NCBI GenBank assembly: GCA_024276395.1
Contig: JAJRXH010000099.1
Span: 1-16,922, forward strand
DNA length: 16,922 nucleotides
Source: an archaeon
GTDB lineage: Archaea > Asgardarchaeota > Heimdallarchaeia > Hodarchaeales > S146-22
Direction: 5' to 3'
Shown: positions 1-15,332 of the stretch, in pieces
Position numbering within the stretch: position 1 is the stretch's first letter
Layout of the letters: every line of letters starts with the position of its first letter
Position numbers and translations under genes: made by a program
Notes under the pieces: model-generated
The model's input: only the letters and a program-made list of their open reading frames with translations
What the model was told of the DNA's origin: nothing
The model's database searches: none

Positions 1-55
1 AAACACGAGCCCTCGTGGGATTACCCCTGGTCACGGGTGGTTTTTCTTCTTTTTT
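1..55 (+). repeat. Copy 1 of a ~54-nt double-hairpin plus oligo-T element (may extend left of the window)
   Basis: Positions 1-39 match 162-200 at 37/39. Both mismatches (pos 10 c/t, pos 28 t/c) fall in a loop or at a U-G to C-G position. Hairpin 1 is CACGAG(4-9)/CTCGTG(12-17). Hairpin 2 is ACCC(23-26)/GGGT(35-38). A T-rich tract follows at 41-60. Confidence 0.7.
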
Positions 56-161
56 CTCTTCTGTTTTGCCGATCACGTCATCACGTCGGTGATGCGTGGC
101 TTTCAAGCATCAGCATCGCGTCATCCGTGAGATTAGTGTCACTCCTGGTGTTGCGAGGATA

Positions 162-214
162 AAACACGAGTCCTCGTGGGATTACCCCCGGTCACGGGTG
201 CTTTTCTTCTTTTC
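162..214 (+). repeat. Copy 2 of the double-hairpin plus oligo-T element; terminator-like on both strands
   Basis: 'aaacacgagtcctcgtgggattacccccggtcacgggtg' is followed by 'cttttcttctttt'. On the minus strand, hairpin 1 is followed by TTTT (161-164), about 80-130 nt downstream of the hisS stop. The segment is GC-richer than its flanks. Confidence 0.7.
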
Positions 215-292
215 CCAAGTTTTATTTTCTCATTCCTCCACTCATCCTACTTCAAATTGACCTTGATACATACCGCAAGTTTTAACTAATTT

Positions 293-1609
293 TCAACTAA
301 TTTGGAAAGTTTTCCTCAAGCGAGAGATAATTTCATTTAATGTAAGCAATAACTGCTCACCACTAACCATATCTCTCAGGATGTATTTATTTTCCTCAAG
401 TTCTTTCTTCCCAATCAGAATGACCTTCGGGACTTGAAGTTTATTGGCATAATCCAAAGCTTTTCGTGCTTTCCATCTTGATATGTTAAAGACTACAGAG
501 AACCCCTCATTTCGAAGTTGTCGAGTGATATTCATAGCATCATCAATCAAATCTTCGGTGAGGTTAACCACGAACACGTGAGGCTTTGGAGTTACCTCAC
601 TGGGAATTAGCTGACGCTGCTTTAATACCATCATGGCCCGAAGCAATCCACCAGCAGTTCCCGTGGCTGGAATGTCACGTCCACCGTAAAGACCTACCAA
701 GGAATCATAACGCCCTCCGCCGAACAATGCCCCAGCTCGCTCATCCTTCAAGTCATAAGCTTCCCAAACAGGGCCTGTATAATATCCTAGGCCCCTTACG
801 ATGGACAAATCAATGGTCACGAAGTTTTTCATCCCTACCACTTCAAAATAATGGAGCAATTCCCGTAAATCTTTCAGTCCATTCTTTACTTTGTTAACAT
901 CACCGAATCGTTCTTCAATGGCAAGCAAAGCCTCCTCTTTCCCTCTCATCAACGTACCAAGAACCTCTTCACCAGCTTGCCTAGAAAATCCATTCTGTTC
1001 AAAGCCAGATAAGATTTCTTCGCGTGACACCTTCTGTAACTTGTCAATCAATCGTAGCAATTCGATGATATTGTCATCTGTAGCACCCAATCCTTTCAAA
1101 ATACCCTCTGCCACCTGACGATGACCAATTCTTACCTCGAAATCTTCATATCCTAATGAGCGAAAAATGTCAATTCCCACGGCAATTGACTCAAAATCAG
1201 CTAAAACATCCTTTTCACCAAGAATTTCCACGTTCCATTGAAAAAACCATCGCCTTCTTCCATAGGCAGGTTGATCATAACGCCACATGGAAGAGATGGC
1301 ACCTAATCTTATCGGTAATGGCCAGCGAGGATGATTGGCAACCATCCGAGCGATTCCCACGGTAAGGTCAAATCGCAATCCTAGTTCTCTACCAGCCTTG
1401 TCTCTGAAATAGTAGATTTCATCCTTGATGGCAGGGCCAGATTTAGCAGATAATGTCTTAAATTCTTCAACCATCGTAGGTTCAACTAATTGGAAACCAT
1501 AACGACGGAATTCTTTCCTAATTTTAGTCGTCATCCAATCTTGAATGGCCATTTCTTCGGGACCTATATCGTCCATCCCTTTTGGCGGTTTGTATTCTTC
1601 TTTTCCCAT
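293..1609 (-). CDS. hisS: Histidyl-tRNA synthetase (class II aaRS)
   Basis: 438-aa ORF. Motif 2-like 'WRYDQPAYGRRRWFFQWNVEILG' and motif 3 'FGGGRYDSLVGLYGG' are present. A C-terminal anticodon-binding-type domain is present ('VFVVNL...KVILIGKKELEE'), which argues against HisZ. GAGGT (complement of 1618-1622) lies 8 nt upstream of the ATG. The stop is TGA. Confidence 0.93.
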   Translation of the reverse strand: MGKEEYKPPKGMDDIGPEEMAIQDWMTTKIRKEFRRYGFQLVEPTMVEEFKTLSAKSGPAIKDEIYYFRDKAGRELGLRFDLTVGIARMVANHPRWPLPIRLGAISSMWRYDQPAYGRRRWFFQWNVEILGEKDVLADFESIAVGIDIFRSLGYEDFEVRIGHRQVAEGILKGLGATDDNIIELLRLIDKLQKVSREEILSGFEQNGFSRQAGEEVLGTLMRGKEEALLAIEERFGDVNKVKNGLKDLRELLHYFEVVGMKNFVTIDLSIVRGLGYYTGPVWEAYDLKDERAGALFGGGRYDSLVGLYGGRDIPATGTAGGLLRAMMVLKQRQLIPSEVTPKPHVFVVNLTEDLIDDAMNITRQLRNEGFSVVFNISRWKARKALDYANKLQVPKVILIGKKELEENKYILRDMVSGEQLLLTLNEIISRLRKTFQIS

Positions 1610-1643
1610 ATTAATGAACCTCTTCAGTGACTTCTAAGCAAAA

Positions 1644-4600
1644 ATGGTAGAGCAATATTTAAATGAGTTGGCGCCATTGTATGATAGGAGAGATACTATG
1701 TCCAACCTCAGAGCAATTCTTGATGAATTAACCGCTAAAGGCATTGATACTGATCAACTAAAAGAAATCTTGGTAAAAAACCACAAGAAATTACAAAAAA
1801 ATTCAGATATCAATGATCTGCAGGTAATGATTTATCGCTTGATGGCACCCGTCTTTGGGGCTGGAGAAGCACGAACCATTGCTGCAAAAATCGTTCCCAT
1901 CCTACCTGAATTATTAAAAAACGAATTGGTAGATGGAGAAAAAAGGGAAGATATAGGGAGACCAGCCTTTTTCACTCTTACCCACCAAGGTGAAACTCTC
2001 ACGGGGTATCTCCCGCGAAGCTTTCATCAAGGCCTTCTAAAGCTTGCATCACAGCCACCAATTACGTATCTCGAACTAAACGAATACTTTTTCAGTATTT
2101 CTGATTCGTCACTCGATTCTCTCGTACGAGATCAGTCTGCAGAAGAAATTTTTCAATGGACGACAAAACGCCTTCTTTCTTGGCCAAAACTGTATGGTGA
2201 GGATGAACATGACATTTATCTCTTCTATTTCTCGGACTTTGAAGATAAACACGTGATGCATTCCAATGACATCGTTTTTCATGCGAGAGAGACTTGGGAT
2301 CGAATTGGAATTAGGATAATTTGGCCAATTGAAGAGAGAAAACTCCGAGATCTTAACGCTACTAGCATCATCCTGTACATGATGAACCTTGCCTTCAAGC
2401 ATTTGGCTGGCATCTTCGAATGGAAGCGACTATTTTCAAAGATAGAAAAAGATGCAATCATAAATGCAAATATTGATGAATTAAATACTTTTTTTATTCA
2501 CTTACTCCAAGGATATCTCAATTATTTCATCAATCCAAGAATACATGATCATTCATTCAGTATCAAACTCGAATCAGTCCACGATTTCAAGCATGAATTA
2601 GGGTTCACTCCCGAACAATTCATCAAAACAAGTGATCCAAGCCTCCAACAATTTGGGTCTAGACTGATGAACTTAATGTTCCATTGGAAATTATTCCGAT
2701 GGATGGGCTTCAGAGACGAGGGTCATGGCAACACATCGAAAGAATCATTTTTTGACTTGTTCATTCTTTTATGCCGTGATATTTTGGGATTTAACATCAG
2801 TTCACCCCTCCAAATCCCATCATTAGCCGAGATCAAGAAACGATGTGAAGAAATTGCCCCAGAAAAACCATTTGAGAAGGCAATCGTTGAGCCAATAGCT
2901 AAAGAGCTCACCTATCTTGTCAAGATTGTTACCCTAAAAGGGGGAATTAACCAAGACCTCACCATGTCTTTCAGAAATGGATATCTTTCAGCTCGTATCG
3001 GCAAAACCTTACATCAAATCTATACCTACTACCTAGAATGGAAAGGAGAAGAAAAAGGGCAAGAAAGTTTTGTATTGTACATTTATCGAGTGGCAGCGGA
3101 AGGGCTTGTATCAAGCAATAACATGGTAATTAAGAAAAGCCTCCAATATCTGATAGACATGGAAGAAGAAGGATTTGGAAGAAACAAGAATAGAACCATC
3201 AAATCGGACATGGTACAAGACCTATTGAAACTCCATAACGTAATCCTCATAAAAAAACTTGACGATGCTGAAAGCACGCAACAATGGATTAAGAACACGG
3301 TCTTGCAAGTATTCTCTTTCGTCCATGGTGCCCGATTGTTCAAGCTCCTGAGAGAAGGGTTCAAAAGATTTGAAGAAAGACCAATAAGAGTCATTTGGAA
3401 TCCTGATGAACAAGAAGAGATGCACTCTGAACTGCAATCAATGCTTTCCCGTGCTCTTGAAACAAAAGAAACTATTTTAAGCATCCAAAACATCATCAAA
3501 AGAGCAATGCAGGAAGGAATTCGGAAGATACCCCCTGACAATGAAATCTTTGACACCATCATCGAAAACTTACCATTGGAAAAAAACCTAACTTTAAAGG
3601 AAAATGTCCACCAATTTGTCCTTGTTCTCACGAACTTGCTTCATAGCCACATCAACCCGCTCTTAGGAAGAAAAACCGAAGAGAAAGAAGAACGTGTCTC
3701 TTTCACTGATGAATTAGACCAAGCAGTGACAACTGAAATATTTCTACAGAGAATTTTCAGAGAAAATCATGAAAATTTCTCAAAAATAGCCAAAAACAAA
3801 TCAACTTGGCTATATCAGCAAGATGATTCCATCATAAAAGAGTTAGAACCACTACTCATTGGAGGAGTAATTTCATTAGTTCTACACAAGAGACCTTTAA
3901 GCAATGACGAATACAAGATACTTTCTTTTGAAGATATCCTACAATTACTGGAAACTGAACTATTACACCTATCTCACACATCAATAATCCAAGAAAAAGA
4001 CGACTCGGAAAAAATAAAACTTTTCAAGACCTACATCATTGATAGCGTGGAATTATGGAGTAACGTGTTTAGAGTATCAGACCTTCTGAGCGTCTTTCTT
4101 CAATCTCAAGACTTCCTGGATGCGTTCTCAATCACGGTTAACAACACTAACAAGGAAAACCTCCTCCAAAAACCAGAAATCAGAAGCTTTCTAGCGCAAC
4201 ATTACATTCGAGGTTGGATTTCAGCATGGTTCAACCATGGGATTGATTTTGCCGAAAATGCAGTTAACACGCCAGATCCACCAGAGGAACTTCTTTGGGA
4301 AATTGTTGATGCGACGCGGCGAGTGCATTTCCCACAATTTCTTCGATGGTTTTTAATTGGAAACACGAACCTTTCCTTGGAACGAATCAACCATCTAATG
4401 GAAAAATATCTTCTTCTCACGGAAACCATCGTACAAGGAGAGTTTTTAAGTCTTTATCCAGAAATCTGTCTAGCATTCTTGGTACTGCACGGTTCTGGTA
4501 CCAGAAACCTGACACATCTTTCATCATTATTACAAATCCCTAATACGGAATGTGACATTCATTTCCTTAAAAGCGGTGAAATACACTCCGTGATGAATCT

Positions 4601-5627
4601 TTTGACAGACTCAGATGCTCCGTTTCCAAAAGATATTCTCAAGAATGTCGCTGCCCTAAGTATACTACATGGACTAGAACTGGAAGCCATTACCTTTCGC
4701 TTGCCATCATCATCCATCTACCTCACGATGAGTTACTTCCCACGAGTAAGCGCATTTACAGATGTTGCTGGGACAACCAGCATCATTCTAACTATGCAGC
4801 GTCCTTTATCCGAACAGATAGCCGATCTCGCTCCGAAAAATGCCGAAGTCATCAGCGGTCTTTATTCGCTATTTACTGACAATCCCATTGATAATCCCAT
4901 TGGTAAACTTGTACTTCTCCAACGGCTGCGATTCACCACGATAGCTGCACTCAAAAACCTTGATTTCATCAAAAAAATGAAAATGCCCAGCGATCTCGAC
5001 ATTCAACTTTCCATTTCTAAAGATGAAACCACGCTATCCCGTGACTATGATGTAATTGGTTTATTTCATCTAAAACTCGGAAAAATCGATCAATCTACCA
5101 GTGAAAGCAAAATTTACGTGAGAAAGATCCAGTTTTACGGAAAAAAATTGAATCAATTCTTGTACATTAATCAATTTTTCCTCGCCTTTCTGCCCTTATC
5201 CACAACAGTGTCTCATTCTCTAGAAACCTCTAAGAGTCTCGGAACGAAAACGTATCTCGCCCGAGGACGTTCATTGTTCCTCACTCCCGTAGCGTCAATA
5301 TTCAGATTCAAGGACGAGAACGACGATAAAAGAAAAATCATCATCCTATACGATTCTCCAACTGAAGATACCATGGATCTTTGCATTCTATGGGAAAGCA
5401 AAATGGTCAAAGAGCCATATAGCGTGAACAAAGCTAGATTCATTCTAGAATCAAATCGAGTGAAGGAAACAGGAGCTTGGAATCTAGAAAATCTTGCATC
5501 AAAAATCTTTTCCTTGCCAGTACGAACACCATACTTCGACGTGACAAAAAAGGACACAACCACGGGGAAAGAAATGCCAGAAACTGACTTGGAAAAGATT
5601 GAAAGCATTTCTCTCGGAGGATTTTGA
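1644..5627 (+). CDS. Large (1327 aa) hypothetical protein with no recognisable domain; predicted soluble and largely helical, with a more beta/Ser-Thr-rich C-terminal ~300 aa
   Basis: This is the longest uninterrupted ORF in the window, and every antisense ORF within it is short. I saw no P-loop, no TM segments and no catalytic signature. An alternative start is ATG 1698 (aa 19), preceded by AGGAG (1686-1690) at 7-nt spacing. The stop TGA (5625-5627) abuts the next gene. Confidence 0.85.
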   Translation: MVEQYLNELAPLYDRRDTMSNLRAILDELTAKGIDTDQLKEILVKNHKKLQKNSDINDLQVMIYRLMAPVFGAGEARTIAAKIVPILPELLKNELVDGEKREDIGRPAFFTLTHQGETLTGYLPRSFHQGLLKLASQPPITYLELNEYFFSISDSSLDSLVRDQSAEEIFQWTTKRLLSWPKLYGEDEHDIYLFYFSDFEDKHVMHSNDIVFHARETWDRIGIRIIWPIEERKLRDLNATSIILYMMNLAFKHLAGIFEWKRLFSKIEKDAIINANIDELNTFFIHLLQGYLNYFINPRIHDHSFSIKLESVHDFKHELGFTPEQFIKTSDPSLQQFGSRLMNLMFHWKLFRWMGFRDEGHGNTSKESFFDLFILLCRDILGFNISSPLQIPSLAEIKKRCEEIAPEKPFEKAIVEPIAKELTYLVKIVTLKGGINQDLTMSFRNGYLSARIGKTLHQIYTYYLEWKGEEKGQESFVLYIYRVAAEGLVSSNNMVIKKSLQYLIDMEEEGFGRNKNRTIKSDMVQDLLKLHNVILIKKLDDAESTQQWIKNTVLQVFSFVHGARLFKLLREGFKRFEERPIRVIWNPDEQEEMHSELQSMLSRALETKETILSIQNIIKRAMQEGIRKIPPDNEIFDTIIENLPLEKNLTLKENVHQFVLVLTNLLHSHINPLLGRKTEEKEERVSFTDELDQAVTTEIFLQRIFRENHENFSKIAKNKSTWLYQQDDSIIKELEPLLIGGVISLVLHKRPLSNDEYKILSFEDILQLLETELLHLSHTSIIQEKDDSEKIKLFKTYIIDSVELWSNVFRVSDLLSVFLQSQDFLDAFSITVNNTNKENLLQKPEIRSFLAQHYIRGWISAWFNHGIDFAENAVNTPDPPEELLWEIVDATRRVHFPQFLRWFLIGNTNLSLERINHLMEKYLLLTETIVQGEFLSLYPEICLAFLVLHGSGTRNLTHLSSLLQIPNTECDIHFLKSGEIHSVMNLLTDSDAPFPKDILKNVAALSILHGLELEAITFRLPSSSIYLTMSYFPRVSAFTDVAGTTSIILTMQRPLSEQIADLAPKNAEVISGLYSLFTDNPIDNPIGKLVLLQRLRFTTIAALKNLDFIKKMKMPSDLDIQLSISKDETTLSRDYDVIGLFHLKLGKIDQSTSESKIYVRKIQFYGKKLNQFLYINQFFLAFLPLSTTVSHSLETSKSLGTKTYLARGRSLFLTPVASIFRFKDENDDKRKIIILYDSPTEDTMDLCILWESKMVKEPYSVNKARFILESNRVKETGAWNLENLASKIFSLPVRTPYFDVTKKDTTTGKEMPETDLEKIESISLGGF
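1654..1664. promoter_or_regulatory. AT-rich near-palindromic TATA-like element between divergent hisS and the 1327-aa gene (possible bidirectional promoter core)
   Basis: 'aatatttaaat' reads as TATA-like on both strands. It lies ~50 nt upstream of the hisS ATG (1609) and ~39 nt upstream of the in-frame ATG at 1698. A second TATA-like 'atattaat' (1608-1615) could instead serve the ATG at 1644, so the assignment is ambiguous. Confidence 0.35.
5616..5620 (+). promoter_or_regulatory. Shine-Dalgarno (GGAGG) for the GTPase gene, embedded in the last codons of the upstream ORF
   Basis: The sequence reads 'ctcGGAGGattttgaGTG', so GGAGG ends 7 nt before GTG 5628. The same motif class precedes other starts in the window. 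Confidence 0.6.
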
Positions 5628-6953
5628 GTGAAAATAGATCTCATTCTCATTGGAGATGGCATGTCTGGGAAAACAACTCTCATCAAAAAACATACCGAGT
5701 TTGTTTTTCAGAAGTTCGCCTTAAAATTCGAGCAATATCTCATTGAGCGTGGCCTGCCGTCATTTTCACAATGGAAAAATGAATTCCAAGACATTAATCG
5801 CGCTCTAAAACTAATAGAAAGAGATCTTAGTGCAAGTTTCATGGCAAATGACCCAGAATATCCACAAAAAAAATACTTTGAATGGGCAACACGAAATGCA
5901 AACGTGATAAAGTTCGAGGACTGGCTCAATCATTTAGGAGTTGATCTTGGTAACCACTTATCCACAGATACGTCAGTTGCCACACTCGGAATGGATACCA
6001 TCCAGATGAAATATCCCATCAAGGATGACCTCATCCACATCAGCGGATATGATCTAGGGGGACAAAACATCTATGATCAAATTAGAGACGTGATTACTGG
6101 TTTGGCTAAGCCAAAATCTTTCCTTGTTGTAGTATTCGACTCATCTCGTTTCCTTTCTTGTGAAAATAGCATAAGACAATTGCTTAGTAGCTTGAAAAAG
6201 TTTGAAATGAAAGAATATACCCCAACAATCCTTGCTGTCCTCAACAAAATTGACTTGCAGGATTATATGAGCAAGGAAAAATGGCAAGAATTTACCGCCA
6301 AGCACATTGCAACCACGTTACAAGAACTAAGGAAAAAAGATATCAAATACCAAGTTCCTAATCTATTATTTAAGGAAGAAATACGAGAGATCATCCTACC
6401 AAGATCAGATTTAGTTGGTTTTGAACACCTAGAGGCGTTAATATACCACAGTCTCAAGAAAAATGAGGCCACCTTTGGAAAAAATCCATTTACTGAAATA
6501 AATACAAAAGCCATTGCCAGGGAAATAGCTGCCCAACTCTTACTCTACCAAAACCCCAATCCAAGCTATTATGAAGGACTAAGAAAATTACTGTTTGAAC
6601 AAAGGCCATTAGCCGTCCAATACATCGAAGGTATTTCCCTCACTACTTTAGAGCCAGGAAGGCACGAAAAAGAAGCATTAAGAAGGTTAAGAAAGAAGTT
6701 TGAAGGCTTCGAACTTGACCTCACTTCCATTAATGCAAACGTGGTCAAAGCCGTCATTCTTAATTCCATCAACACGAAAGACCTCGAGATGACACTAAAG
6801 GAACAAGGTTATCCCTTATTCAAGACTAGTGCCCTTGAAGGGACAGGAATTCCAGAATTATTCGATTATATCACGAAATTATCGAGAGAAAAACAAAAAG
6901 ATTTGAATTCAGAAAAAAGAAGAATTCCAAGGAGACTGGGAAAAATTACGTGA
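5628..6953 (+). CDS. Atypical small-GTPase-superfamily protein (441 aa) with two large insertions; G3 is Arf/Galpha/Rag-like (DxGGQ)
   Basis: G1 is 'GDGMSGKT' (aa 9-16). The switch I candidate is 'ATLGMDT' (aa 118-124). G3 is 'DLGGQ' (aa 142-146, nt 6051-6065). G4 is 'NKID' (aa 206-209, nt 6243-6254). G5 is 'TSALEG' (aa 400-405). There are ~95 aa between the G1 helix and switch I, and ~185 aa between G4 and G5. A GTG start is required because any later ATG would delete the P-loop. Confidence 0.85.
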   Translation: MKIDLILIGDGMSGKTTLIKKHTEFVFQKFALKFEQYLIERGLPSFSQWKNEFQDINRALKLIERDLSASFMANDPEYPQKKYFEWATRNANVIKFEDWLNHLGVDLGNHLSTDTSVATLGMDTIQMKYPIKDDLIHISGYDLGGQNIYDQIRDVITGLAKPKSFLVVVFDSSRFLSCENSIRQLLSSLKKFEMKEYTPTILAVLNKIDLQDYMSKEKWQEFTAKHIATTLQELRKKDIKYQVPNLLFKEEIREIILPRSDLVGFEHLEALIYHSLKKNEATFGKNPFTEINTKAIAREIAAQLLLYQNPNPSYYEGLRKLLFEQRPLAVQYIEGISLTTLEPGRHEKEALRRLRKKFEGFELDLTSINANVVKAVILNSINTKDLEMTLKEQGYPLFKTSALEGTGIPELFDYITKLSREKQKDLNSEKRRIPRRLGKIT

Positions 6954-6980
6954 TATACACTGAACAGATCGTTCTTTACC

Positions 6981-6991
6981 TTTTATTTTTT
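6981..6991 (+). terminator. Oligo-T tract downstream of the GTPase gene (archaeal-type terminator candidate)
   Basis: 'ttttatttttt' lies 28 nt after the TGA at 6953. It overlaps the 3' end of the convergent 94-aa gene. Confidence 0.4.
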
Positions 6992-7267
6992 CAAACGAGA
7001 AGTAATGCCTTTTACCTTGTCCTTAAGAGCGGCACCAGCTTGAGAGATCTTCATTTTCGCCTGGATCGTTTCTGATCCAAGGAGCTTCGTAATGCCCGCG
7101 CAAATCTCACAAACACACTGATTTCTGAAAGTTTCTTGCACTTCCATATCCTTAAATACACCAGAGAAGGCTTCACGCAAGTCTTGATCAGTAAGAAATA
7201 TCGCTTCTTCGCTTACTTTTCTTCGGCAGATCCAACATTCAGCCTTACCAGAACCAAATAATGGCAA
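6983..7267 (-). CDS. Small hypothetical protein (94 aa) with two CxxC pairs (possible zinc-binding)
   Basis: It carries 'CWIC' (aa 11-14) and 'CVCEIC' (aa 51-56) and has a Lys-rich C-terminus. The start is a non-ATG TTG (complement of 7265-7267), preceded by a strong GGAGGTG (complement of 7277-7283) at 9-nt spacing. Confidence 0.55.
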   Translation of the reverse strand: MPLFGSGKAECWICRRKVSEEAIFLTDQDLREAFSGVFKDMEVQETFRNQCVCEICAGITKLLGSETIQAKMKISQAGAALKDKVKGITSRLKK

Positions 7268-7312
7268 TTGATATCACACCTCCTTACGTCACGTGGATAC
7301 AGCTCGGACAAG

Positions 7313-7321
7313 CTTATAAAA
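7313..7321 (+). promoter_or_regulatory. TATA-box candidate for the metallophosphoesterase gene
   Basis: 'cttataaaa' is centred ~35 nt upstream of ATG 7352. No SD is present, which fits a short leader or leaderless mRNA. Confidence 0.45.
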
Positions 7322-7351
7322 CATTCTAATTAGATTTCAAGTGAAGTTACC

Positions 7352-8068
7352 ATGAAGAGAATGCTTGTTGTCTCTGATACTCATTCCAATCTCGAGGCAT
7401 TAGAAGCAATTTTAAAAAATCCGATGGCAAAATCCGCCGAAATCAAAGCGTGCATTGGCGATATTGTTGGATATGGACCAAATCCCAATGAAATCATTTC
7501 CATCGTAAAAACCTTTCAGCACGTGGTACCTGGCAACCATGATGCAGCAGCTCTACTAGGTGACTCTCCGGTATTCAATAGAGCAGCCAGAAAGGCAATT
7601 TCATGGACACAACAACAACTAACAGAAGAAAGCAAAAAGTTTTTAGCAAGCTTACCTCGACCTCATGAGATATACCACTTTACCTGGGAGGGGTCAGCTT
7701 TTGCAGCTTGCCATGGTTCTCCATTCCTTCCCTTACTAGGATATGTTTATCCTAGAACTAATCCAGATGTTCTGAATCGGATGTTATCAAAAGCTAAAGC
7801 TGATATCCTTCTGTTAGGACATACACACATTCCCATGGTTTACCACAATGGCAATGAAAAGGCCAAGCTGATATTGAATCCCGGGTCAAGCGGACAACCA
7901 CGAGATTTGGATCCTCGTGCATCTGCTCTCGTGCTAGAATATGAAGGTGGGAATGAATTCACGCCAATTTTCATTCGAGAAGAATATGAGATCGAAATAA
8001 CAGCTGATAAAATAAAAGATGCAGGATTGCCAAACGTCCTCGCAGAAAGACTCTTTCTAGGAAGATAG
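7352..8068 (+). CDS. Metallophosphoesterase (calcineurin-like, YfcE/MJ0936/ApaH-related family)
   Basis: The ordered signature motifs are 'VVSDTHSN' (DxH), 'GDIVGYG' (GD), 'GNHD' and 'GHTH', followed by 'LNPGSSGQPRD'. Length is 238 aa. Confidence 0.9.
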   Translation: MKRMLVVSDTHSNLEALEAILKNPMAKSAEIKACIGDIVGYGPNPNEIISIVKTFQHVVPGNHDAAALLGDSPVFNRAARKAISWTQQQLTEESKKFLASLPRPHEIYHFTWEGSAFAACHGSPFLPLLGYVYPRTNPDVLNRMLSKAKADILLLGHTHIPMVYHNGNEKAKLILNPGSSGQPRDLDPRASALVLEYEGGNEFTPIFIREEYEIEITADKIKDAGLPNVLAERLFLGR

Positions 8069-8088
8069 ATAAACTAGTAAATAAATTT

Positions 8089-8391
8089 TCACAAATTGAT
8101 GGGACGATTTGAACTAATCAAGACAAAATCTCTTTTGAGAACTTCATTCACGTGATCCCGTGGAATCCCCTTGTGTAATAATTGTGCAACGAAAACCGCC
8201 TTGCAATTCTCACAATAAGTGTTTCTAGTCTTTTTATTGAAATATAAACGATATTCAAGTATGGTCTTACCACAGAACGTGCATTTTTGATCAAAATCAA
8301 ACAATAAATTCCGAAGAGTAGCACAGTCATCACAATATCCAGCACGAGAAACGGGACGACCGCATCTCAAGCATAATTGAATACGTTTCAT
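8089..8391 (-). CDS. Small zinc-ribbon protein (100 aa, four CxxC motifs)
   Basis: It carries 'CLRC', 'CDDC', 'CTFC' and 'CENC', which suggests two Zn-ribbon knuckle pairs. GAGGT (complement of 8399-8403) lies 7 nt upstream of the ATG. An AT-rich 'tttttaaac' box lies ~50 nt upstream. Confidence 0.6.
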   Translation of the reverse strand: MKRIQLCLRCGRPVSRAGYCDDCATLRNLLFDFDQKCTFCGKTILEYRLYFNKKTRNTYCENCKAVFVAQLLHKGIPRDHVNEVLKRDFVLISSNRPINL

Positions 8392-8508
8392 GAGAAAAAC
8401 CTCAAGATCATTCTCAATGGTGCCAATGCAAAAAAAGTTTAAAAAGAAAATGTTAGTTAGAGTATTTTTTTAATGGGATTCTCAAGAAAATGGCCTGAAT
8501 AACACCCA

Positions 8509-9726
8509 TTACTTGTTCTTTTGAGGTCCAACAGAAGGCTGTTTCTTGCTAATATCTTTCACAATTTGCATGAAAGGTAATACCATCTGTGCTATGGCCT
8601 TGTAAGCCTCCTGTCCTTCTCCTAATAGCATCATTTGATCGACTTTAATGTTGCTAAAGACTTGTGGAAGCACTTCTAGGGTCTTGAGTTGAATGAAACG
8701 CTCGTCCGCCTGTTGTATGGCCTTGACTTGCTCCATCAAACCTTCAGCTTCTGCAATGATTCGTTGTCGAATCTTGGCAGCTTCACCCTCAGCCTCAGCC
8801 AAAAGCTGAGCTTTCTTGGCTTCAGCTTCTCTCATAATTCTTTCCACTTCAACTTCGATTTCCTGTTTCACACGCTTGAATCTTTCAGCCTCTGCTTCGA
8901 TTTGCACTCGCTTGCGGACAGTTTCCGCTTCTACGAGAGCTCGTTCTTGTTCTAATCTCGCTACTTGAATCTCTCGTTCTTTAGATTTCTGTTCAATTTT
9001 CAACTTAACCTCTTGCTCTGATAAACCAGTTTTCTCTCTCACTTGCAAGTCACGAAGCCTAGTAATTTCTTCCATTTCTGATCGAGAAAGTCGAGCTTTC
9101 TTCTCCTCTTCAATCTTTTTAATGGCTTCAAGGTTTTCCTTGAGATTACTGTCCAATACTTCAACATCTCGAATTTCAACACTCTCTATTTCAATGCCCC
9201 AATCACCGACCAAATCATGGAGTTCACTCGTCACGCGCTTGATGATTTCTGCACGTTCGCGAATGATTTTCTCGATGGGCATATTTGCACAAGTTGTTCT
9301 AATGATGGACTCTGTAGCATTTTTGAGAACTCGTTCAATGTAGTCAGGCGCTGTTGGATCCCAATTAACTCTTCCGAAAGACACCTCTGGATCCGTAACT
9401 CTCCAATAAATATAGGCAGTTAAAGCTACATCCTGGTACTCATTTGATACTACTTGTTCTCGGGCCTCAAGTAATGTTTGTTGTACGGTCGTAGGAATCA
9501 CGACAATCTCATCGATCAAGGGCAATAGTATCAAGGAACCACCAGTCTGTGCCTTTCGGATCCTACCATTCCGAAAATGAATCACGAACTGATTGCTAGT
9601 ATACTTGCGGTACCGAGACGCTAGAAAGACGAAAAAAAAGACAAGGAGTATGCCAACTACAACAGCAGCACCACTCACCATGGGCAATAATTCTTGTTGT
9701 GCTATTATTAGATTTCCGATAGGCAT
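8509..9726 (-). CDS. SPFH/band-7 family protein, flotillin-like (YqiK/FloT type)
   Basis: It has an N-terminal TM helix ('VVVGILLVFFFVFLA') and an SPFH-like core ('FVIHFRNG...LILLPLIDEIVVIPTTVQQ...YIYWRVTDPE'). A long Glu/Ala/Lys/Arg-rich coiled coil follows, with flotillin-type 'AEAEGEAAKIRQRIIAEAEG'. GAGGTG (complement of 9734-9739) lies 7 nt upstream of the ATG. Confidence 0.88.
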   Translation of the reverse strand: MPIGNLIIAQQELLPMVSGAAVVVGILLVFFFVFLASRYRKYTSNQFVIHFRNGRIRKAQTGGSLILLPLIDEIVVIPTTVQQTLLEAREQVVSNEYQDVALTAYIYWRVTDPEVSFGRVNWDPTAPDYIERVLKNATESIIRTTCANMPIEKIIRERAEIIKRVTSELHDLVGDWGIEIESVEIRDVEVLDSNLKENLEAIKKIEEEKKARLSRSEMEEITRLRDLQVREKTGLSEQEVKLKIEQKSKEREIQVARLEQERALVEAETVRKRVQIEAEAERFKRVKQEIEVEVERIMREAEAKKAQLLAEAEGEAAKIRQRIIAEAEGLMEQVKAIQQADERFIQLKTLEVLPQVFSNIKVDQMMLLGEGQEAYKAIAQMVLPFMQIVKDISKKQPSVGPQKNK

Positions 9727-9938
9727 TCATTTACACCTCATTCTTTCATTTTTTTGATATGATCCACCAAATGATCAAAGTTGTTTTTACCATATCATCA
9801 CACAATTTTTTCGAGGAGATGGCGGCAACAGATAAGCGTCATCTCACCCATGTTTTCCTCTCTTGCTTTATTAGGATTAATTCATGTTCATAATCTCCCA
9901 AATTGATCATAATGACACTGCTTGCATCACACTTTGAT

Positions 9939-9959
9939 GGCAAAAGGTGCTATTTTGCC
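9939..9959 (-). other. Perfect 7-bp stem-loop in the NfeD-flotillin spacer
   Basis: The structure is GGCAAAA (9939-9945), a 7-nt loop, then TTTTGCC (9953-9959). It lies 22 nt downstream of the NfeD-like stop on the minus strand. No oligo-T run follows, so it may be a processing or stability element rather than a terminator. Confidence 0.4.
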
Positions 9960-9980
9960 AACACGAGTGTGCTATCTCTC

Positions 9981-10610
9981 TCATTTCTTACCAGTAATCG
10001 GCCATTCATCAATTATTAACATGGATCCGACTTTATCAACGATATATGCGGTGGATCCTCTTGGAATTCGATGGCCAGTTGTCCGTGCCGACATTTTTAT
10101 CTGCTTGTGAGTTGTTCCAGTGCTCACTCTCACGATACCTCCTTTTTCATCGACATCTGTAATGCAATATACTTCATCATTAATTCTTACCGTCTGAGAG
10201 GGGATGGGTTCTCCACTAGTTGACCGAGAGATGGAACCCCATAATCGTGCCGTTCCCATCGTGACGAGTAATGGAATGCCAACCACCACTCCCAAACGAA
10301 CCATGGGATCAAATGCTTCAAACCAATACACGATCGTCCCAAATCCACCAAAACTTAGCAAAAATACACCAGCAATCAGAAAGAGTGGTGTAGCGCCATC
10401 ACCACCATGCGCATCGTGAATGTCACCACCAATATCATGTGCGCCGCTCACATCCACATCCCCATGTACATCAAGATCTGAATCCAGATCAAAAACATGC
10501 ATTCCAGAAAAAATGATGGTCATAAAGAACAAGATGAGACCAATTATGAGCATGAACACAGCAGCATAAAAAATCCAATATTCCCACATTTCAAGTGGCA
10601 ATTCAACCAT
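9981..10610 (-). CDS. NfeD/YqiJ-like membrane protein (partner of SPFH proteins)
   Basis: It has N-terminal TM helices and an Asp/His/Gly-rich segment, 'DLDSDLDVHGDVDVSGAHDIGGDIHDAHGGDG'. Further TM helices follow, then a C-terminal beta-rich segment ('VRINDEVYCITDVDEKGGIVRVS...AYIVDKVGSMLIIDE') typical of the NfeD OB-fold. It lies immediately upstream of the SPFH gene on the same strand, which is the classic pairing. Confidence 0.68.
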   Translation of the reverse strand: MVELPLEMWEYWIFYAAVFMLIIGLILFFMTIIFSGMHVFDLDSDLDVHGDVDVSGAHDIGGDIHDAHGGDGATPLFLIAGVFLLSFGGFGTIVYWFEAFDPMVRLGVVVGIPLLVTMGTARLWGSISRSTSGEPIPSQTVRINDEVYCITDVDEKGGIVRVSTGTTHKQIKMSARTTGHRIPRGSTAYIVDKVGSMLIIDEWPITGKK

Positions 10611-10881
10611 CCTCCTATGATTTATTCTTCATTAACCTCAAGATTAGTAGCAGCATCGTTTCAGCTATACCATTGCTAGTGTCATCTTAAAAAGATTTGA
10701 TTGCGGAAGTAAATACGAAATTAGAGATTCATTCACGGTAGAGACAACACTTAAAGCCTCTATTTCAAGCGATATCACCATTTTATTGGCATTCTGCCCA
10801 TCATGAGGTTAATGACGAATGAACGTGTTCCAGTCCATCACGTGCCATCCATCCATCAATGATTATTCATGGAGCTACATT

Positions 10882-10892
10882 CTTATATAAAG
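10882..10892 (+). promoter_or_regulatory. TATA box for the MFS-fusion gene (near-leaderless)
   Basis: 'cttatataaag' is centred ~29 nt upstream of ATG 10916, and no SD lies between them. This is the classic archaeal leaderless geometry. Confidence 0.55.
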
Positions 10893-10915
10893 ATGCGCGA
10901 CTATCGTGATGTGCA

Positions 10916-12928
10916 ATGAAAAGCAACGAAATCGAATCCAAGAATGGTGTGGAAATCATCATCTTGGCATGTTCCATCATATTCTTCGCCGCTGCTGTTT
11001 ATGGAGTCCAAAGAAGCATTTTGAGCATTCAGACACAACAAGATGTCAGTTTTACTAAATGGGTTCTAAGCGGACTTTTTCTTTCCGCAGCTGCCTCATT
11101 GATTGGATTTGGCTTAACAAAAGCCGCAATGGGAACCATCTCGGGAATACTTGTCGACAGGTCAGGATTCTTTAAAGTTGCCTCATTAGGTGCGACCTTG
11201 TTCGTCATCAGTCCGACACTAGCCTCACTATGGACGAATCCACTCATCACGACCTTTAGTAACCTTCTTTTAGGAATGGGTGAAGGAATATTATACACTG
11301 CGGTTTCCATTCAGTTAGGACAAATGGTAAGCTCACGGAAGCGAGCTACGATGATGAGCATCATGGAGCTTTCAATTTTTTTAGGCTATTCAATCGGAGC
11401 ATTAACCCCTGGGATTAAAGTCATCCATGATACTCTTAATCCATTCCTCATTGCCAGCATCTTTGGAGGACTAGCCGCAATTCTCACTTTCAGCATCAAG
11501 TATTTCCCTTTTACTCACCAAAAAAAATCGAAAAAAAACCGTATTAAGAGTAGATTTAGTCATGATTTGAGCTTAAGCAAAAATTTAAGTCCAAGATTAG
11601 CCAAGTTATTACCAAGGCTCCCTGTACAACCTGAAGAACTAATCAAGAAAAAATATAGCGGGTTAAAGCCCTTGCACAACCGCTTACTAGTCACGATATC
11701 CCTAAATGGACACGTGTCCAAATTTGCAGATGCTGTAATAGTCTTATTCTTACCAATATTGCTAGTAAATTTCCGAGATTTTTCATTAGCACAAGCTGCA
11801 CTAGTCTCTTCCGCATTCACGTTTGCATGGGCATTAGCAATGCCATTCTCTGGAAGACTGTCAGATACTTTTGGAAGAAAGCCAGTCACCTTGGTAGGGT
11901 TAGTTGGTCAGGCTATTGCAGTCGGCCAAATAATTAGTGGCACGTCGTTTTTTTCTACTCTGAGCGCGGTGGCTTTAATGGGAATCTTTAGTGGTCTATA
12001 TTATCCAGCAAATCCCTCAGCAGTGTTAGACATGACACCGAGACCCGTTCAAGGAAAATTAATGGGAATTTATAGAGCTAGTAAAGATTTAGGATATGTA
12101 ACTGCACCACCCTTGAGCGCAATCCTAGTCTACTTGTCTTTAGTTGGCTTAAAGGATGTCAACCTTGCTATCAAGATGCCTTTCCTAATTGTCCAGATAG
12201 CATTAATAATAGCTGCAACAAACACGTTCTTCTTTGGCATCGAAACTAGACCGGCTTGGTGGCAGTATCAAACCTCTCTTGAACACGCACTAACGTGTCT
12301 TGCTGCTGTAGATGCTGCTGTGGATGGCATGAGAATCTACCTACGAGATTCAGACCATCCTTTTTTCACGAAAAATCCTAAAAATGAAGAAATTGAAAAA
12401 GAAGCAAGAGAAAAAGCCATTGACGCTAAGCATTATGAAGTAATTGCCGATGAATTATTAGATCAAATTGCAATGAGAACGTATCAAACCATTCAAACGG
12501 CAGCTGATGCGCCCGAATTCATAAAAATAGCACGTCGCTTTGACAGAGTAGCTGGACTGAGTGTCGGAGCGACCATGAGACTCAGAAAGATTGAATTCGA
12601 CTTGATCCCAGAATTTCTACGTGTCACGTTGATTCGACAAGCCAAGGGATTACGAGAACTAATGAACCATGGCATCCAAGGACTAGCCTTGTTGGAACAC
12701 GGAATCGACCAAATAGAATATATCTACAAGAAGACAAGAAAGAAAGAGAAACATCTTGATGACATCTACCTTCAAGCATCACGTTACCTATATTCAAAGG
12801 CGGATTATCTCTCATTCGGCACGTGGATGTCCATTCATAATGTCATCGAGATTCTTGAACAGGCTGCAGATACAATTGAAGATGCTGTCGAAGGCATTCG
12901 CATGCTCTCTCTCAAGTATGTCACTTGA
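10916..12928 (+). CDS. MFS transporter fused to a C-terminal cytoplasmic DUF47/PhoU-like (PhoU_div) domain
   Basis: There are about 12 hydrophobic helices over aa 1-445. MFS motif A occurs in both halves ('GILVDRSGFFKV' at aa 77-88 and 'GRLSDTFGRKPV' at aa 313-324). Aa ~446-670 (nt ~12251-12925) is soluble and helical with a DUF47-like pattern ('HYEVIADELLDQIA', 'IARRFDRVA', 'KKEKHLDDIY', 'VIEILEQAADTIEDAVEGIRMLSLKY'). Confidence 0.82.
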   Translation: MKSNEIESKNGVEIIILACSIIFFAAAVYGVQRSILSIQTQQDVSFTKWVLSGLFLSAAASLIGFGLTKAAMGTISGILVDRSGFFKVASLGATLFVISPTLASLWTNPLITTFSNLLLGMGEGILYTAVSIQLGQMVSSRKRATMMSIMELSIFLGYSIGALTPGIKVIHDTLNPFLIASIFGGLAAILTFSIKYFPFTHQKKSKKNRIKSRFSHDLSLSKNLSPRLAKLLPRLPVQPEELIKKKYSGLKPLHNRLLVTISLNGHVSKFADAVIVLFLPILLVNFRDFSLAQAALVSSAFTFAWALAMPFSGRLSDTFGRKPVTLVGLVGQAIAVGQIISGTSFFSTLSAVALMGIFSGLYYPANPSAVLDMTPRPVQGKLMGIYRASKDLGYVTAPPLSAILVYLSLVGLKDVNLAIKMPFLIVQIALIIAATNTFFFGIETRPAWWQYQTSLEHALTCLAAVDAAVDGMRIYLRDSDHPFFTKNPKNEEIEKEAREKAIDAKHYEVIADELLDQIAMRTYQTIQTAADAPEFIKIARRFDRVAGLSVGATMRLRKIEFDLIPEFLRVTLIRQAKGLRELMNHGIQGLALLEHGIDQIEYIYKKTRKKEKHLDDIYLQASRYLYSKADYLSFGTWMSIHNVIEILEQAADTIEDAVEGIRMLSLKYVT

Positions 12929-12971
12929 TGACCGCATTTTCATAATGGTGCAATAAATCTAGACGACATTT

Positions 12972-13913
12972 CTATTCAGGCATCTCTATTCTTATTGTCA
13001 TGGCCTCAAAAGATTTCCACCTAATAGATCTTGGTCTCAATAGGGGAAGAAGACTAATGACGGAAAGGGTAGCATCATCATACTTCTGATGTCGTAGCAA
13101 ATAATGATCGAGAATCTTAATGATTCCTTTTTTCCAGTTCAAGATCATCCTATCTTCACCACCCTCGAACGAAGAGCCATAATTGGCATCAAGACTATAG
13201 GCACGCAATAACCGTGCTAAAGAATCAATCAAAGTACGAGCATTCTCACGAACGGCCGCACCATCCGTCCCTAGCACGGCAATGATACCATTTCTTGGAA
13301 TCCTAAGTTTTAGATATTCTGGTTCTCCCACCACGCCACTTTCATCAACGAATGAACGGATCACATCATCTGAAGACTGCTTAAAAAAGGGAAAGGTTGC
13401 TTGTTTAATTCGTAATTCTACAATCTCACCGTCATACTCGATAACTGGATAAATTAACAGAAGATCAGAATCCCCAAGATTATAGGCATGGAGATACTGA
13501 GTTCCTTCCAAAACCAGACATAAAAAAGTAGTTGAAGACTCAATTACACCATTAACAGCAATTAAACTAGTTAAGTGTTCTTTTATTAGTGGAGATACCT
13601 TTTCACTAATAAATTGTGTCAAGAATTCATCGACTCTCGAAAAGATGTCAGAAGTTGAGGAATATCTCCTCTGAAATTCATCAGAGACCATATTTACAAT
13701 GATGGAAGAAGCTATATCACCCCGTGTTGCTGAAATACCATCAGCAATGAAAATTCCCGGAATATTGTGGTGTTTTAATAGAGACGCACTATCTTCTCCC
13801 TTTACTAAATTATTAATTTTATAATGAGCATGGCCAAAATACCTAGTTTTCGAATGAGTAACAATCCAGGAAAATTCATCTTCAATCGGTTTTGAATTGG
13901 GATTTAAGGGCAT
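12972..13913 (-). CDS. PP2C-like (PPM-family) protein phosphatase, divergent paralog B (313 aa)
   Basis: The ordered PPM-like motifs are 'KGEDSA' (ED), 'FIADGIS' (DG), 'SSTTFLCLV' (GTT-like), 'NLGDSDLLL' (GDS), 'LGTDGAA' (xDG) and 'YDDATLSVISL' (DNxT-like). It shares all of these with the 254-aa ORF at 14568-15332. Confidence 0.65.
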   Translation of the reverse strand: MPLNPNSKPIEDEFSWIVTHSKTRYFGHAHYKINNLVKGEDSASLLKHHNIPGIFIADGISATRGDIASSIIVNMVSDEFQRRYSSTSDIFSRVDEFLTQFISEKVSPLIKEHLTSLIAVNGVIESSTTFLCLVLEGTQYLHAYNLGDSDLLLIYPVIEYDGEIVELRIKQATFPFFKQSSDDVIRSFVDESGVVGEPEYLKLRIPRNGIIAVLGTDGAAVRENARTLIDSLARLLRAYSLDANYGSSFEGGEDRMILNWKKGIIKILDHYLLRHQKYDDATLSVISLLPLLRPRSIRWKSFEAMTIRIEMPE

Positions 13914-13930
13914 CTAAATGCCTTCCATGG

Positions 13931-13940
13931 ATATATTTTT
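13931..13940 (-). promoter_or_regulatory. TATA box for PP2C-like paralog B (near-leaderless)
   Basis: On the minus strand 'aaaaatatat' is centred ~22-25 nt upstream of the ATG (13913). No SD is present. Confidence 0.5.
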
Positions 13941-13945
13941 CTTCT

Positions 13946-13987
13946 CTTCATCCCGTACGAACTAATCTTCATCCCGTACGAACTAAT
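13946..13987. repeat. Perfect 21-nt tandem duplication (2 units), each containing the palindrome CGTACG, directly upstream of the TATA box
   Basis: 'cttcatcccgtacgaactaat' at 13946-13966 is identical to 13967-13987. The CGTACG cores sit at 13954-13959 and 13975-13980. The repeat lies in the 106-nt spacer between the Rab-like stop and the PP2C-B start. Confidence 0.9.
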
Positions 13988-14019
13988 AACAAAACTTTAG
14001 AAGATAGAAATGATTAGGA

Positions 14020-14571
14020 CTAATCAAGGATAGACCTAACAAAGTAATCAAAGGCCTCGTTTACACCTTCACCTGTTTTAGCAGAAGTCTCAAAGAAATA
14101 TACGATGTTAAATTCCTTCCTCAATTTTTCAGCTAATTGCTCACCTTCTTCCTTAGAAACAGTTGTTGTTCTCACGGTATCTCTCAAATCGATCTTATTA
14201 CCAATCAGCATCAACGGTATTTTCTTGTTATCATTATTCTGCAACAACTCTTTCGTCCATAAAGGGATGTTTTCGTAGGAATGAGGATTGGTGACATCAT
14301 ATACCAAAATGGCACCCGATGAACCATTGTAGTACAAGGAACGGACTGTAGCGAATTGCTGCTGTCCAGCCAGATCCCATATCTGTAAGCGAACTTCTCG
14401 ATCATCTATCAAGACGCTTTTCACAGAGAAATCTGCACCAATCGTGACCATATATTTCGTATTAAAACCTTCTCCTAGGTATTTCTTCCGTAATGACGTC
14501 TTACCGACTGCCATATCACCCAATAACGGAATTTTCAAAATTCGGCGGAGCATCTTTCTCATCCTCATCAT
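14020..14571 (-). CDS. Rab-like small GTPase (Ras superfamily), eukaryote-like, without a C-terminal prenylation cysteine
   Basis: G1 is 'GDMAVGKT' (nt 14497-14520). Switch I is 'YMVTIGADF'. G3 is 'LQIWDLAGQQQF', compared with eukaryotic Rab 'LQIWDTAGQERF'. G4 is 'GNKIDL' and G5 is 'ETSAKTGEGVNEAF'. The protein ends '...VRSILD' with no Cys. Its ATG overlaps the upstream TGA (ATGA at 14568-14571). Confidence 0.92.
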   Translation of the reverse strand: MMRMRKMLRRILKIPLLGDMAVGKTSLRKKYLGEGFNTKYMVTIGADFSVKSVLIDDREVRLQIWDLAGQQQFATVRSLYYNGSSGAILVYDVTNPHSYENIPLWTKELLQNNDNKKIPLMLIGNKIDLRDTVRTTTVSKEEGEQLAEKLRKEFNIVYFFETSAKTGEGVNEAFDYFVRSILD

Positions 14572-15332
14572 TTGGAATCAGAATCTTTCATGTAGTCTGG
14601 TGCAGGTACATACATCACACCAATCGTTGCATCATCCTTCACTTCCAACTTGCTCATAAAATGTTGTAACCCATCCTCTAAGGAAAACTTCTCCATTCGG
14701 ACACCATGCAAGTGCAACCATAATGACTTGTATATATCTGGATTATTGAAAGAGATACCATCAGTGGCCATGATGAGAAAACTACCCTCTGGAAAAGATT
14801 GACGCACGGCAAGGAAGGTAGGTAGTGAGGAAACTCCCTTTGATGACACGTATCCTTCTAGCTTGCCCCCACGAGAATATGGAATTAAATAACTTGCTGA
14901 TGCTTGCAAATCACCATTAAAATGAAGTATGGTGCCATCACCAAGATAGTATACATAAATGTAATTTCCATCAGTTGCTCCTATCATGACTGTTGTTGCG
15001 GCATCCTCCGATTTCACACCCTCTTCAAGCAAAGCAAACCGCATATTCTGTGGTGCAGCGTACATGAGATCATCTAACACGCTCTCCAGTTCAGCTGGAT
15101 TACCATCATGCGTGATCGCATAAGAAAAAGCTTCATTCATGATCTGAACCATTATACGAGATGCCACTGAGCCAAGTGTCTGGGATACCCCATCACAAAT
15201 GATAATTCCTCGAAGATGACCATCTACCGTTTCAAAGGTACCAACTGCATCGTGACCATGAAAGTCATTTCGCGAATAAGTTGCGATCTTCACTTGCTCG
15301 AGGACGGCAGTATTAGGTTTCATCCAATTCAC
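14568..15332 (-). CDS. PP2C-like (PPM-family) protein phosphatase, divergent paralog A (254 aa by ORF track, more likely 251 aa starting at ATG 15323)
   Basis: The motifs are 'SRNDFHGHD', 'IICDGVS' (DG), 'AATTVMIGA' (GTT-like), 'YLGDGT' (GDS-like), 'IMATDGIS' (xDG) and 'KDDATIGVMYV' (DNxT-like). The ORF-track start is GTG (15332), only 1 nt after GAGGT (complement of 15334-15338). ATG 15323 has a 10-nt spacing and is preferred. Confidence 0.7.
   Translation of the reverse strand: MNWMKPNTAVLEQVKIATYSRNDFHGHDAVGTFETVDGHLRGIIICDGVSQTLGSVASRIMVQIMNEAFSYAITHDGNPAELESVLDDLMYAAPQNMRFALLEEGVKSEDAATTVMIGATDGNYIYVYYLGDGTILHFNGDLQASASYLIPYSRGGKLEGYVSSKGVSSLPTFLAVRQSFPEGSFLIMATDGISFNNPDIYKSLWLHLHGVRMEKFSLEDGLQHFMSKLEVKDDATIGVMYVPAPDYMKDSDSK

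Follow-up and report, generated by a model that had tools for sequence, protein, structure and literature searches.

A conserved, probably co-translated pair of genes encoding a giant orphan protein and a Ras-superfamily GTPase in Heimdallarchaeia

Asgard archaea, and Heimdallarchaeia especially, possess hugely expanded repertoires of small GTPases, and we know of almost no regulators or targets of these proteins. Here, we analyze a stretch of 16,922 nucleotides from an archaeon of the class Heimdallarchaeia (GenBank assembly GCA_024276395.1, contig JAJRXH010000099.1, positions 1 to 16,922 of the forward strand; hereafter, the window), with a GC content of about 40%. Two genes on the forward strand of the window directly abut each other. 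The first encodes a giant protein and the second a Ras-superfamily GTPase with large insertions. The features of this pair and of its junction are the following:

1698..5627, forward strand: giant orphan protein, likely coding sequence of 1309 amino acids (aa), within a maximal open reading frame (ORF) of 1327 codons at 1644-5627
5607..5624, forward strand: C-terminal hexapeptide ISLGGF of the giant protein, whose codons carry GGAGG at 5616-5620
5625..5630, forward strand: stop/start junction TGA/GTG with zero spacer (TGA 5625-5627, GTG 5628-5630)
5628..6953, forward strand: insert-bearing Ras-superfamily GTPase of 441 aa with a GTG start (Pfam Ras 39.6 bits, Arf 33.8 bits, Roc 33.2 bits)

An earlier note on this DNA had reported the two ORFs at 1644-5627 (+) and 5628-6953 (+), the zero-spacer TGA/GTG junction and the GGAGG in the last codons of the giant gene, and all of these were located at those positions.

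Further loci were collected by exact-protein look-ups and two collection scans, followed by tblastn searches with both window proteins. The 3' end of the giant gene is present in 11 loci (the window, L001, L005, L007, L008, L011, L012, L013, L014, L015 and L016), which amount to 10 distinct loci once L014 and L015, whose junction sequences are identical, are counted as one; L007 and L009 represent the same place. A homolog of the window GTPase is encoded on the same strand directly 3' of the giant gene in every case (11/11 loci, 10/10 distinct), and no giant gene without an adjoining GTPase was found among the informative loci. The consecutive locus tags ACW99F_16405 and ACW99F_16410 provide a further instance of the pair. 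From stop to start, the two genes are -1 to +3 nt apart in 10/10 distinct loci, where the junctions read TGAGTG, TAATG (overlapping), TAGtATG, TAGATG, TAGaATG, TAAcacATG, TAAcATG, TAAaATG and TAAtTTG. At 7-10 nt from the first codon of the GTPase, the end of the giant gene carries a GGAG, the Shine-Dalgarno (SD)-like forms being GGAG or GGTGA; L011 departs from this pattern, with GAAGGTGA. The same codons specify a C-terminus with the family consensus (I/L)SLG(G/A)(F/I), and judging from these alignments they appear to be under a double constraint, as coding sequence and as a translational signal.

The loci fall into two lineages; across them, identity is only 20-26% for the giants and about 27-32% for the GTPases. 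The flanks vary, with hisS and a metallophosphoesterase gene in some loci, PolB and DUF8156 together with DUF72 and TrmB in others, and POR in yet others, and only the pair itself is constant. The recurrent adjacency on which the earlier note had made its proposal depend thus extends to 10 of 10 informative loci at about 20-26% identity of the giants. Because the pair is retained despite such divergence and the reshuffled flanks, these comparisons are strong evidence that the giant and GTPase genes form a functional two-gene unit that is predicted to be co-translated.

The linkage is specific to one GTPase paralog. Several GTPases of this type are encoded per genome, one of them giant-linked, and solo copies are present in L002, L003, L005 (4631-5992) and L007 (970-2262). 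The window-lineage solo copies P0006 (L002) and P0007 (L003) lie in unrelated contexts, and the Hodarchaeales-lineage solo copy is found 4-9 kb upstream of the giant gene. No giant-like sequence was detected near the solo copies by tblastn of the collected loci. In a neighbor-joining tree of the GTPases, the two lineages are separated; the Hodarchaeales-lineage GTPases that are linked to a giant make up a separate clade from the solo paralogs, and in the window lineage, some solo copies (P0004-P0006) are placed next to the giant-linked GTPases, which suggests recent duplication. Given that solo paralogs exist and the giant never occurs alone, the giant appears to be tied to one paralog.

The solo copies have neighbors of their own. 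The Hodarchaeales-type solo GTPase is always convergent with a conserved protein of 376-378 aa that lacks a Pfam domain (L005 4631-7163; L007 1-2262; L008 1-2345; also L006) and that may be a partner of the solo paralog. This 378-aa neighbor was considered as a relative of the giant and ruled out (hhalign probability 0.3). Two Arf/Rag-like small GTPases of 194 and 191 aa, encoded in tandem, lie about 1.2 kb away from P0007 (L003 12556-13728; L004 7469-8641), so that three genes of the Ras superfamily are clustered there.

The GTPase can be described in considerable detail, with insertion lengths measured against the canonical 183-aa Ras GTPase of the window in alignment A3:

Motifs, by residue: G1 GDGMSGKT, aa 9-16; G2 T119; G3 DLGGQ, 142-146; G4 NKID, 206-209; G5 TSA, 400-402
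5700..5972, forward strand: insertion 1, aa ~25-115, ~90 extra residues with four helices between α1/G1 and G2/β2
6333..6812, forward strand: insertion 2, aa ~236-395, ~160-190 extra residues between G4/α4 and β6/G5
6603-6623, forward strand: invariant RPLAxQ motif in insertion 2
6912..6950, forward strand: basic C-terminal tail EKRRIPRRLGKIT, consensus KRxIxRF, without a Cys for lipidation

With all five motifs in canonical order, the 441-aa protein is, by its sequence, a Ras-superfamily GTPase, and its Pfam Ras, Arf and Roc scores exceed the gathering cut-offs. Full-length homologs of about 425-465 aa number 33 in Asgard metagenome-assembled genomes (MAGs); their source names are Hodarchaeales, Hodarchaeota and Heimdallarchaeota, with a few labelled by submitters as Thorarchaeota, Hermodarchaeota or Promethearchaeota. 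All five motifs, with the catalytic Gln, are invariant or almost invariant in these homologs, taking the family forms GDGMSGKT, DxGGQ, NKxD and T-[SN]-A, and three arginines of insertion 2 (R298, R326 and R355) are invariant. Between G2 and G3, the β2-β3 hairpin modestly exceeds that of canonical Ras, by about 9 residues in proteins of the window lineage and about 13-15 in those of the Hodarchaeales lineage. The last 24 aa contain 9 K/R versus 3 D/E, a composition with which the tail may serve as a membrane binder.

The AlphaFold2 (AF2) model of the GTPase has a predicted local distance difference test score (pLDDT) of 85 and a predicted TM-score (pTM) of 0.83, and insertion 2 is modeled as a small β unit plus about 7 helices. 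The top Foldseek matches in PDB are G-alpha proteins (Gs, Gi, Golf and Gt; E 3.6e-5 to 3e-4, probability ~1.0), ahead of Rabs, although the TM-scores to the G-alpha chains are only 0.20-0.34. Membership in the G-alpha family was considered and rejected: the Pfam G-alpha profile (PF00503) scores 16.9 bits (E 0.0037), below its cut-off of 48.8, the Arg finger is lacking, and profile comparison prefers Rab and Rho, the nearest solved proteins by sequence profile being Rab28, RhoA, Rab21, Rab6 and Ran. We read the likeness as one of architecture, with a helical lid inserted into the G domain at the same site, and as probably convergent. An Arg three residues before the G2 Thr is absent, the window protein having S-V-A-T and the family consensus being D-T-E-T; without a G-alpha-type finger in cis at the G2 position, the GTPase is compatible with hydrolysis that needs a partner.

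A matching group of GTPases has already been named. Rup3 is a Heimdallarchaeia-specific group of the Ras superfamily, divergent from RasL, ArfR, Rag and MglA, with expansions between G1-G2 and G2-G3, and neither a function nor eukaryotic relatives are known for it (Vargova et al., bioRxiv 10.1101/2024.02.28.582541). The window GTPase probably belongs to this group, because its G1-G2 expansion of about 90 residues and its modest G2-G3 expansion match the Rup3 description. No mention of Rup3 in other papers was found in the literature searched; the group, a prominent orphan one, was already named in 2024 but is uncharacterized. The earlier note had envisaged a new type of GTPase system, of which the GTPase half proves less new than was supposed there.

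The giant protein is a true orphan. Searches of the window protein against Pfam, NCBIfam and PADLOC returned no match, and family members scanned singly (11-13) gave no match above threshold in Pfam, NCBIfam or PADLOC; matches to GCP5-Mod21_N, Sigma_B and WxxxE effectors within the family were all sub-threshold and were discarded as noise. Comparison with PDB sequences by phmmer or with the family profile yielded no match at E <= 10, and no Robl_LC7 or longin domain was detected by Pfam/NCBIfam (11-13 members, E <= 1) or by the PDB profile search (E <= 10). The sequence contains no Walker A and no CxxC motif, a transmembrane (TM) scan found no convincing segment, with one hydropathy window barely above threshold, and hhalign between sub-alignments revealed no internal repeats. 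The statement of the earlier note that no motif could be assigned therefore stands in each of these respects.

Relatives of the giant are few. An exhaustive phmmer (HMMER) search with aa 128-1327 against 1.84 billion representative proteins recovered its own entry and nine relatives, of which the full-length ones have 1261-1289 aa and are 21-26% identical to the query; full-length homologs across all searches have 1260-1317 aa. A word-index search, repeated with a 5-sequence profile, returned only the giant itself and one 60% ortholog, and the genome-contig and metagenome scans contributed 2 and 3 loci, respectively, small numbers that reflect a rare and divergent family. The named sources of homologs are all Hodarchaeales or Heimdallarchaeota, the named cluster members are each annotated 'hypothetical protein' and all come from Hodarchaeales MAGs, and one locus (L007), a complete 4.9-Mb 'Heimdallarchaeota' chromosome, carries a giant gene. 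Since colinear homologs of 1261-1317 aa occur on independent assemblies, the ORF is real and not an assembly chimera, a possibility that the earlier note had raised against itself. Neither the family nor its obligate linkage to one paralog of the probable Rup3 group is described in the literature searched.

For the structure of the giant, an AF2 model of aa 128-1327 was built from an 11-sequence alignment, with secondary structure assigned by DSSP. In the numbering of the 1327-aa ORF, the parts are:

1698..4532, forward strand: all-helical N-terminal two thirds, to aa ~963 (DSSP of the AF2 model)
3318..3452, forward strand: conserved block 'LLREGFKRFEERPIRVIWNPDEQEEM...', aa 559-603 (conservation scan and alignment)
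3633..3767, forward strand: conserved block 'INPLLGRKTEEKEERVSFTDEL', aa 664-708, which holds R676 (conservation scan and alignment)
4551..4955, forward strand: predicted α/β module 1, aa ~970-1104, element order ββα(α)βββαα (AF2 model, low pLDDT)
5046..5453, forward strand: predicted α/β module 2, aa ~1135-1270, element order ββαααβββα(α) (AF2 model, strand pLDDT 56-89)

Model residues 12-556 (aa ~140-683) form long helices predicted with confidence (pLDDT mostly 70-90), the helical part from aa ~683 to ~963 has low pLDDT, and a short α/β tail follows module 2. Ser+Thr rises to 20-23% in windows of the last ~375 aa. The division that the earlier note had read from the sequence, a helical portion to about residue 1000 followed by a Ser/Thr-rich and more β-like end, agrees with this model. 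The two α/β modules have no sequence similarity detectable by hhalign. Conservation across the family is highest at aa ~994-1068, inside module 1, followed by the blocks aa 559-603, which the locus-finding scan picked as its search pattern, and aa 664-708; R676 is the sole invariant arginine of the family.

Foldseek searches with the giant model gave no significant match, the lowest E values being 0.1 in PDB and 0.04 in BFVD, so that no search, by profile or by fold, places the giant in a known family. The non-significant matches comprise tandem PAS, LOV and GAF domains, with PAS dominant; helical tethering and transport proteins (Munc13 MUN, transportin, CRM1 and COPI); and GTPase platforms, namely KICSTOR, Fuzzy-Inturned/Rab23 (E 1.5) and a mimivirus longin-SNARE (probability 0.77, E 0.26). 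The element order of the α/β modules fits the longin and PAS folds alike; longins are ordered ββαβββαα and roadblock domains αββαβββ. A 'longin/roadblock-like' character of these modules, suggested by element order and non-significant Foldseek matches to the model, is only a lead.

Within the block aa 559-603, the giant has a W585-x3-E589 arrangement, and aa 573-609 of the ortholog P0002 weakly match the WxxxE effectors of type III secretion systems, which are Rho-GEF mimics (GEF, guanine nucleotide exchange factor). The candidate was rejected: only one member matches NCBIfam NF053507, at 15.8 bits where the cut-off is 38, the distance from W to E is not the same in the two lineages, and no PDB or Foldseek match to Map, IpgB2 or SifA was obtained.

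The remaining features of the locus concern the boundaries of the unit:

293-1609, reverse strand: hisS, divergent from the giant gene
~1652-1665, forward strand: TATA-like caatatttaaat, putative archaeal promoter
1687-1690, forward strand: GGAG, putative ribosome-binding site, 8 nt before ATG 1698
6981..6991, forward strand: T-rich tract (T4, T6) 3' of the GTPase stop, possible archaeal terminator

The likely start of the giant gene is ATG 1698 (M19 of the 1327-aa ORF), because the NCBI record has 1309 aa, M19 aligns with residue 1 of all homologs, and the upstream elements are common to the window and L001: the TATA-like element, with the consensus 'caatattta[a/t]aat', and the GGAG both occur upstream of the L001 ortholog. 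The ORF of 1327 codons given in the earlier note is real, and its start at 1644 gives way to the likelier 1309-aa version. The self-contained operon proposed there retains its divergent hisS; the T tract at 6981-6991 is present, yet it doubles as the 3' end of a convergent ORF of 94 aa. This ORF is conserved in position and length between the window (6983-7267, -) and L001 (15583-15867, -), and it had no match in Pfam and PADLOC searches.

A family-B DNA polymerase is encoded upstream of and divergent from the giant gene in both lineages (L005 7354-9919; L007 2259-5525; L008 2351-5734; L013 1-5513; L001 3661-6306). The polymerase of L013 contains an intein, and the Hodarchaeales-lineage polymerases have DUF8156 beside them, together with a protein of 229-271 aa that gives a weak Rad51-like match. 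Its proximity may represent residual synteny or a functional neighborhood.

The other genes of the window encode a metallophosphoesterase, an SPFH/Band 7 protein, an MFS transporter, the canonical 183-aa Ras GTPase and glpK. The 183-aa GTPase (14020-14571; Pfam Ras E 2.9e-50) lies on the reverse strand (12972-15332) between two genes for PP2C-like phosphatases (12972-13913 and 14568-15332), and its start shares 4 nt with the upstream one of these PP2C-like ORFs, an overlap that suggests a second translationally coupled GTPase-partner pair in the window. In the MFS transporter (10916-12928, +; 670 aa), Pfam detects a PhoU_div/DUF47 domain (E 5e-7) at the C-terminus, so that a transporter and a domain of the phosphate-signaling type are unusually joined in one protein.

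The reading that we put first, although at somewhat less than even odds, is that the giant is a dedicated regulator-scaffold of the Rup3-type GTPase, the two proteins forming one translationally coupled complex. The conserved operon would encode two subunits of a single Heimdallarchaeia-specific complex made in a fixed ratio, a proposal prompted by the pairing, the coupling signals and the paralog specificity. The GTPase is predicted by its motifs to bind and hydrolyze GTP, and its polybasic tail could hold the protein on anionic membranes. The giant would bind it stoichiometrically through the α/β modules and the blocks aa 559-603 and 664-708, the modules being assigned this role because conservation in the giant peaks in module 1. 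By contacting the switch and insertion surfaces, the giant would control the nucleotide cycle in trans, through GEF activity, GTPase-activating protein (GAP) activity or both, and its helical scaffold of about 950 aa, which precedes about 350 aa of α/β modules, would relay the state of the switch to other factors. We infer the physical interaction of the two proteins, the direction of regulation and the membrane targeting alike.

Several observations weigh against a regulatory role. No GEF, GAP, longin, roadblock, DENN, TBC, Sec7 or DOCK signature was found in the giant by sequence or fold. The AF2 model of the giant is mediocre (mean pLDDT 62, pTM 0.44), and module 1, on which the proposed contact largely turns, is poorly predicted. 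R298, R326 and R355 might act as the finger in cis, leaving no need for a GAP in trans, and a conserved operon may also join a switch to its effector instead of its regulator. The suggestion of the earlier note that the giant is the cognate regulator, effector or scaffold of the GTPase gains strong support from comparative genomics as regards partnership, whichever of the three roles the giant plays.

The alternative that survives best, and that we regard as possible but less likely, is that the giant is an effector or cargo scaffold, which the membrane-held, GTP-bound GTPase recruits or activates, while nucleotide cycling is intrinsic or driven by other proteins. Such an arrangement would resemble the recruitment of large helical coat or tether subunits by Arf/Sar1, and the evidence from the operon and its coupling fits it equally. 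A giant that is mostly a long helical scaffold with weak matches to Munc13 MUN, transportin, CRM1 and COPI is what an effector of this kind might look like, and a GTPase with its own conserved insertion-2 arginines and a polybasic tail agrees with it as well. These fold matches are, however, non-significant (E >= 0.1, TM <= 0.15), no β-propeller, membrane-binding or coat-type domain was recognized in the giant, and its best-conserved part is the α/β region rather than the helical scaffold.

We consider it improbable that the two genes are merely co-transcribed neighbors without a direct functional link, inherited together within one archaeal class. All loci do come from one class-level clade, and wider synteny is partly kept, with PolB near the giant gene in L001, L005, L007, L008 and L013; but the pair remains abutted (-1 to +3 nt, with the embedded SD) at 20% identity through repeated rearrangement of the genes around it, and the giant is never without the GTPase in the loci found. 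Still more remote is a conflict or defense module, an NTPase sensor with a large effector on a variable island, as large orphans beside NTPases are common in defense islands and the giant family is narrowly distributed, but PADLOC has no match for either protein, signatures of nuclease, protease, TIR, Sir2 or TM effectors were not detected, the pair sits beside the housekeeping genes hisS, PolB and POR with no mobile-element genes seen in the flanks, and gene lengths and order are stable in a giant-linked clade that looks vertically inherited.

Returning to the giant as a dedicated partner of the GTPase, a bolder version, which we hold to be possible but less likely than not, is a machine confined to Heimdallarchaeia in which the giant represents a new fold and a new class of regulator or effector, and Rup3 an independent G-alpha-like lid design that needs the giant to cycle. 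Should the giant turn out to have a new fold and to act as a GEF, GAP or effector, a new class of GTPase regulator would be added, and the closest relatives of eukaryotes would have evolved complex GTPase machinery independently, in addition to the part that eukaryotes inherited. In any case, one paralog of the probable Rup3 group gains a strictly co-inherited and, by its junction, apparently co-translated partner of 1,300 residues, that is, a defined two-component system open to co-expression, assay and imaging.

The features of the pair can be set against those of known systems. The window GTPase and its 33 homologs show the expansion features of Rup3, for which no 'operon', 'neighbour', partner protein, G4-G5 insertion or basic tail is mentioned in bioRxiv 10.1101/2024.02.28.582541; the G4-G5 insertion, the basic tail and the partner gene are seen here. 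Like G-alpha, the GTPase has a Ras-like core, in its model with helices inserted between α1 and β2, along with a DxGGQ G3 and a T-x-A-type G5, and it differs in that this insertion has 4 helices versus 6 and that the second large insertion is absent from G-alpha. The GEFs and GAPs built on longin/roadblock platforms (Mon1-Ccz1, Fuzzy-Inturned, DENN, folliculin-FNIP and GATOR1) are likewise large partners that engage a small GTPase via α/β sandwich modules. In the model, the C-terminal modules of the giant follow a ββα..βββα(α) order that recalls these platforms and fits PAS domains as well, with non-significant matches (E 0.26-1.5), and its sequence gives no signal for any such family.

Prokaryotic Ras-like GTPases, such as MglA with MglB, and Asgard small GTPases are often encoded beside small regulators of the roadblock/longin type, and MglB-type partners are single roadblock domains of about 130-160 aa that are recognized by Pfam. 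The parallel drawn in the earlier note with these regulators is apt for the adjoining partner and finds no counterpart in its sequence, the giant having no Robl_LC7 or longin signature by profile. What the pair has in common with MglA/MglB is a Ras-superfamily switch in an operon with its cognate partner, which implies a dedicated regulator made together with the switch. In contrast to MglB, the partner here has 1309 aa and is encoded upstream. Thus, a known theme, the operon of a GTPase and its partner, appears in the window with a partner that is unprecedentedly large and has no family and no detectable fold relative, joined to a GTPase that, unlike MglA, keeps the catalytic Gln and carries two large insertions.

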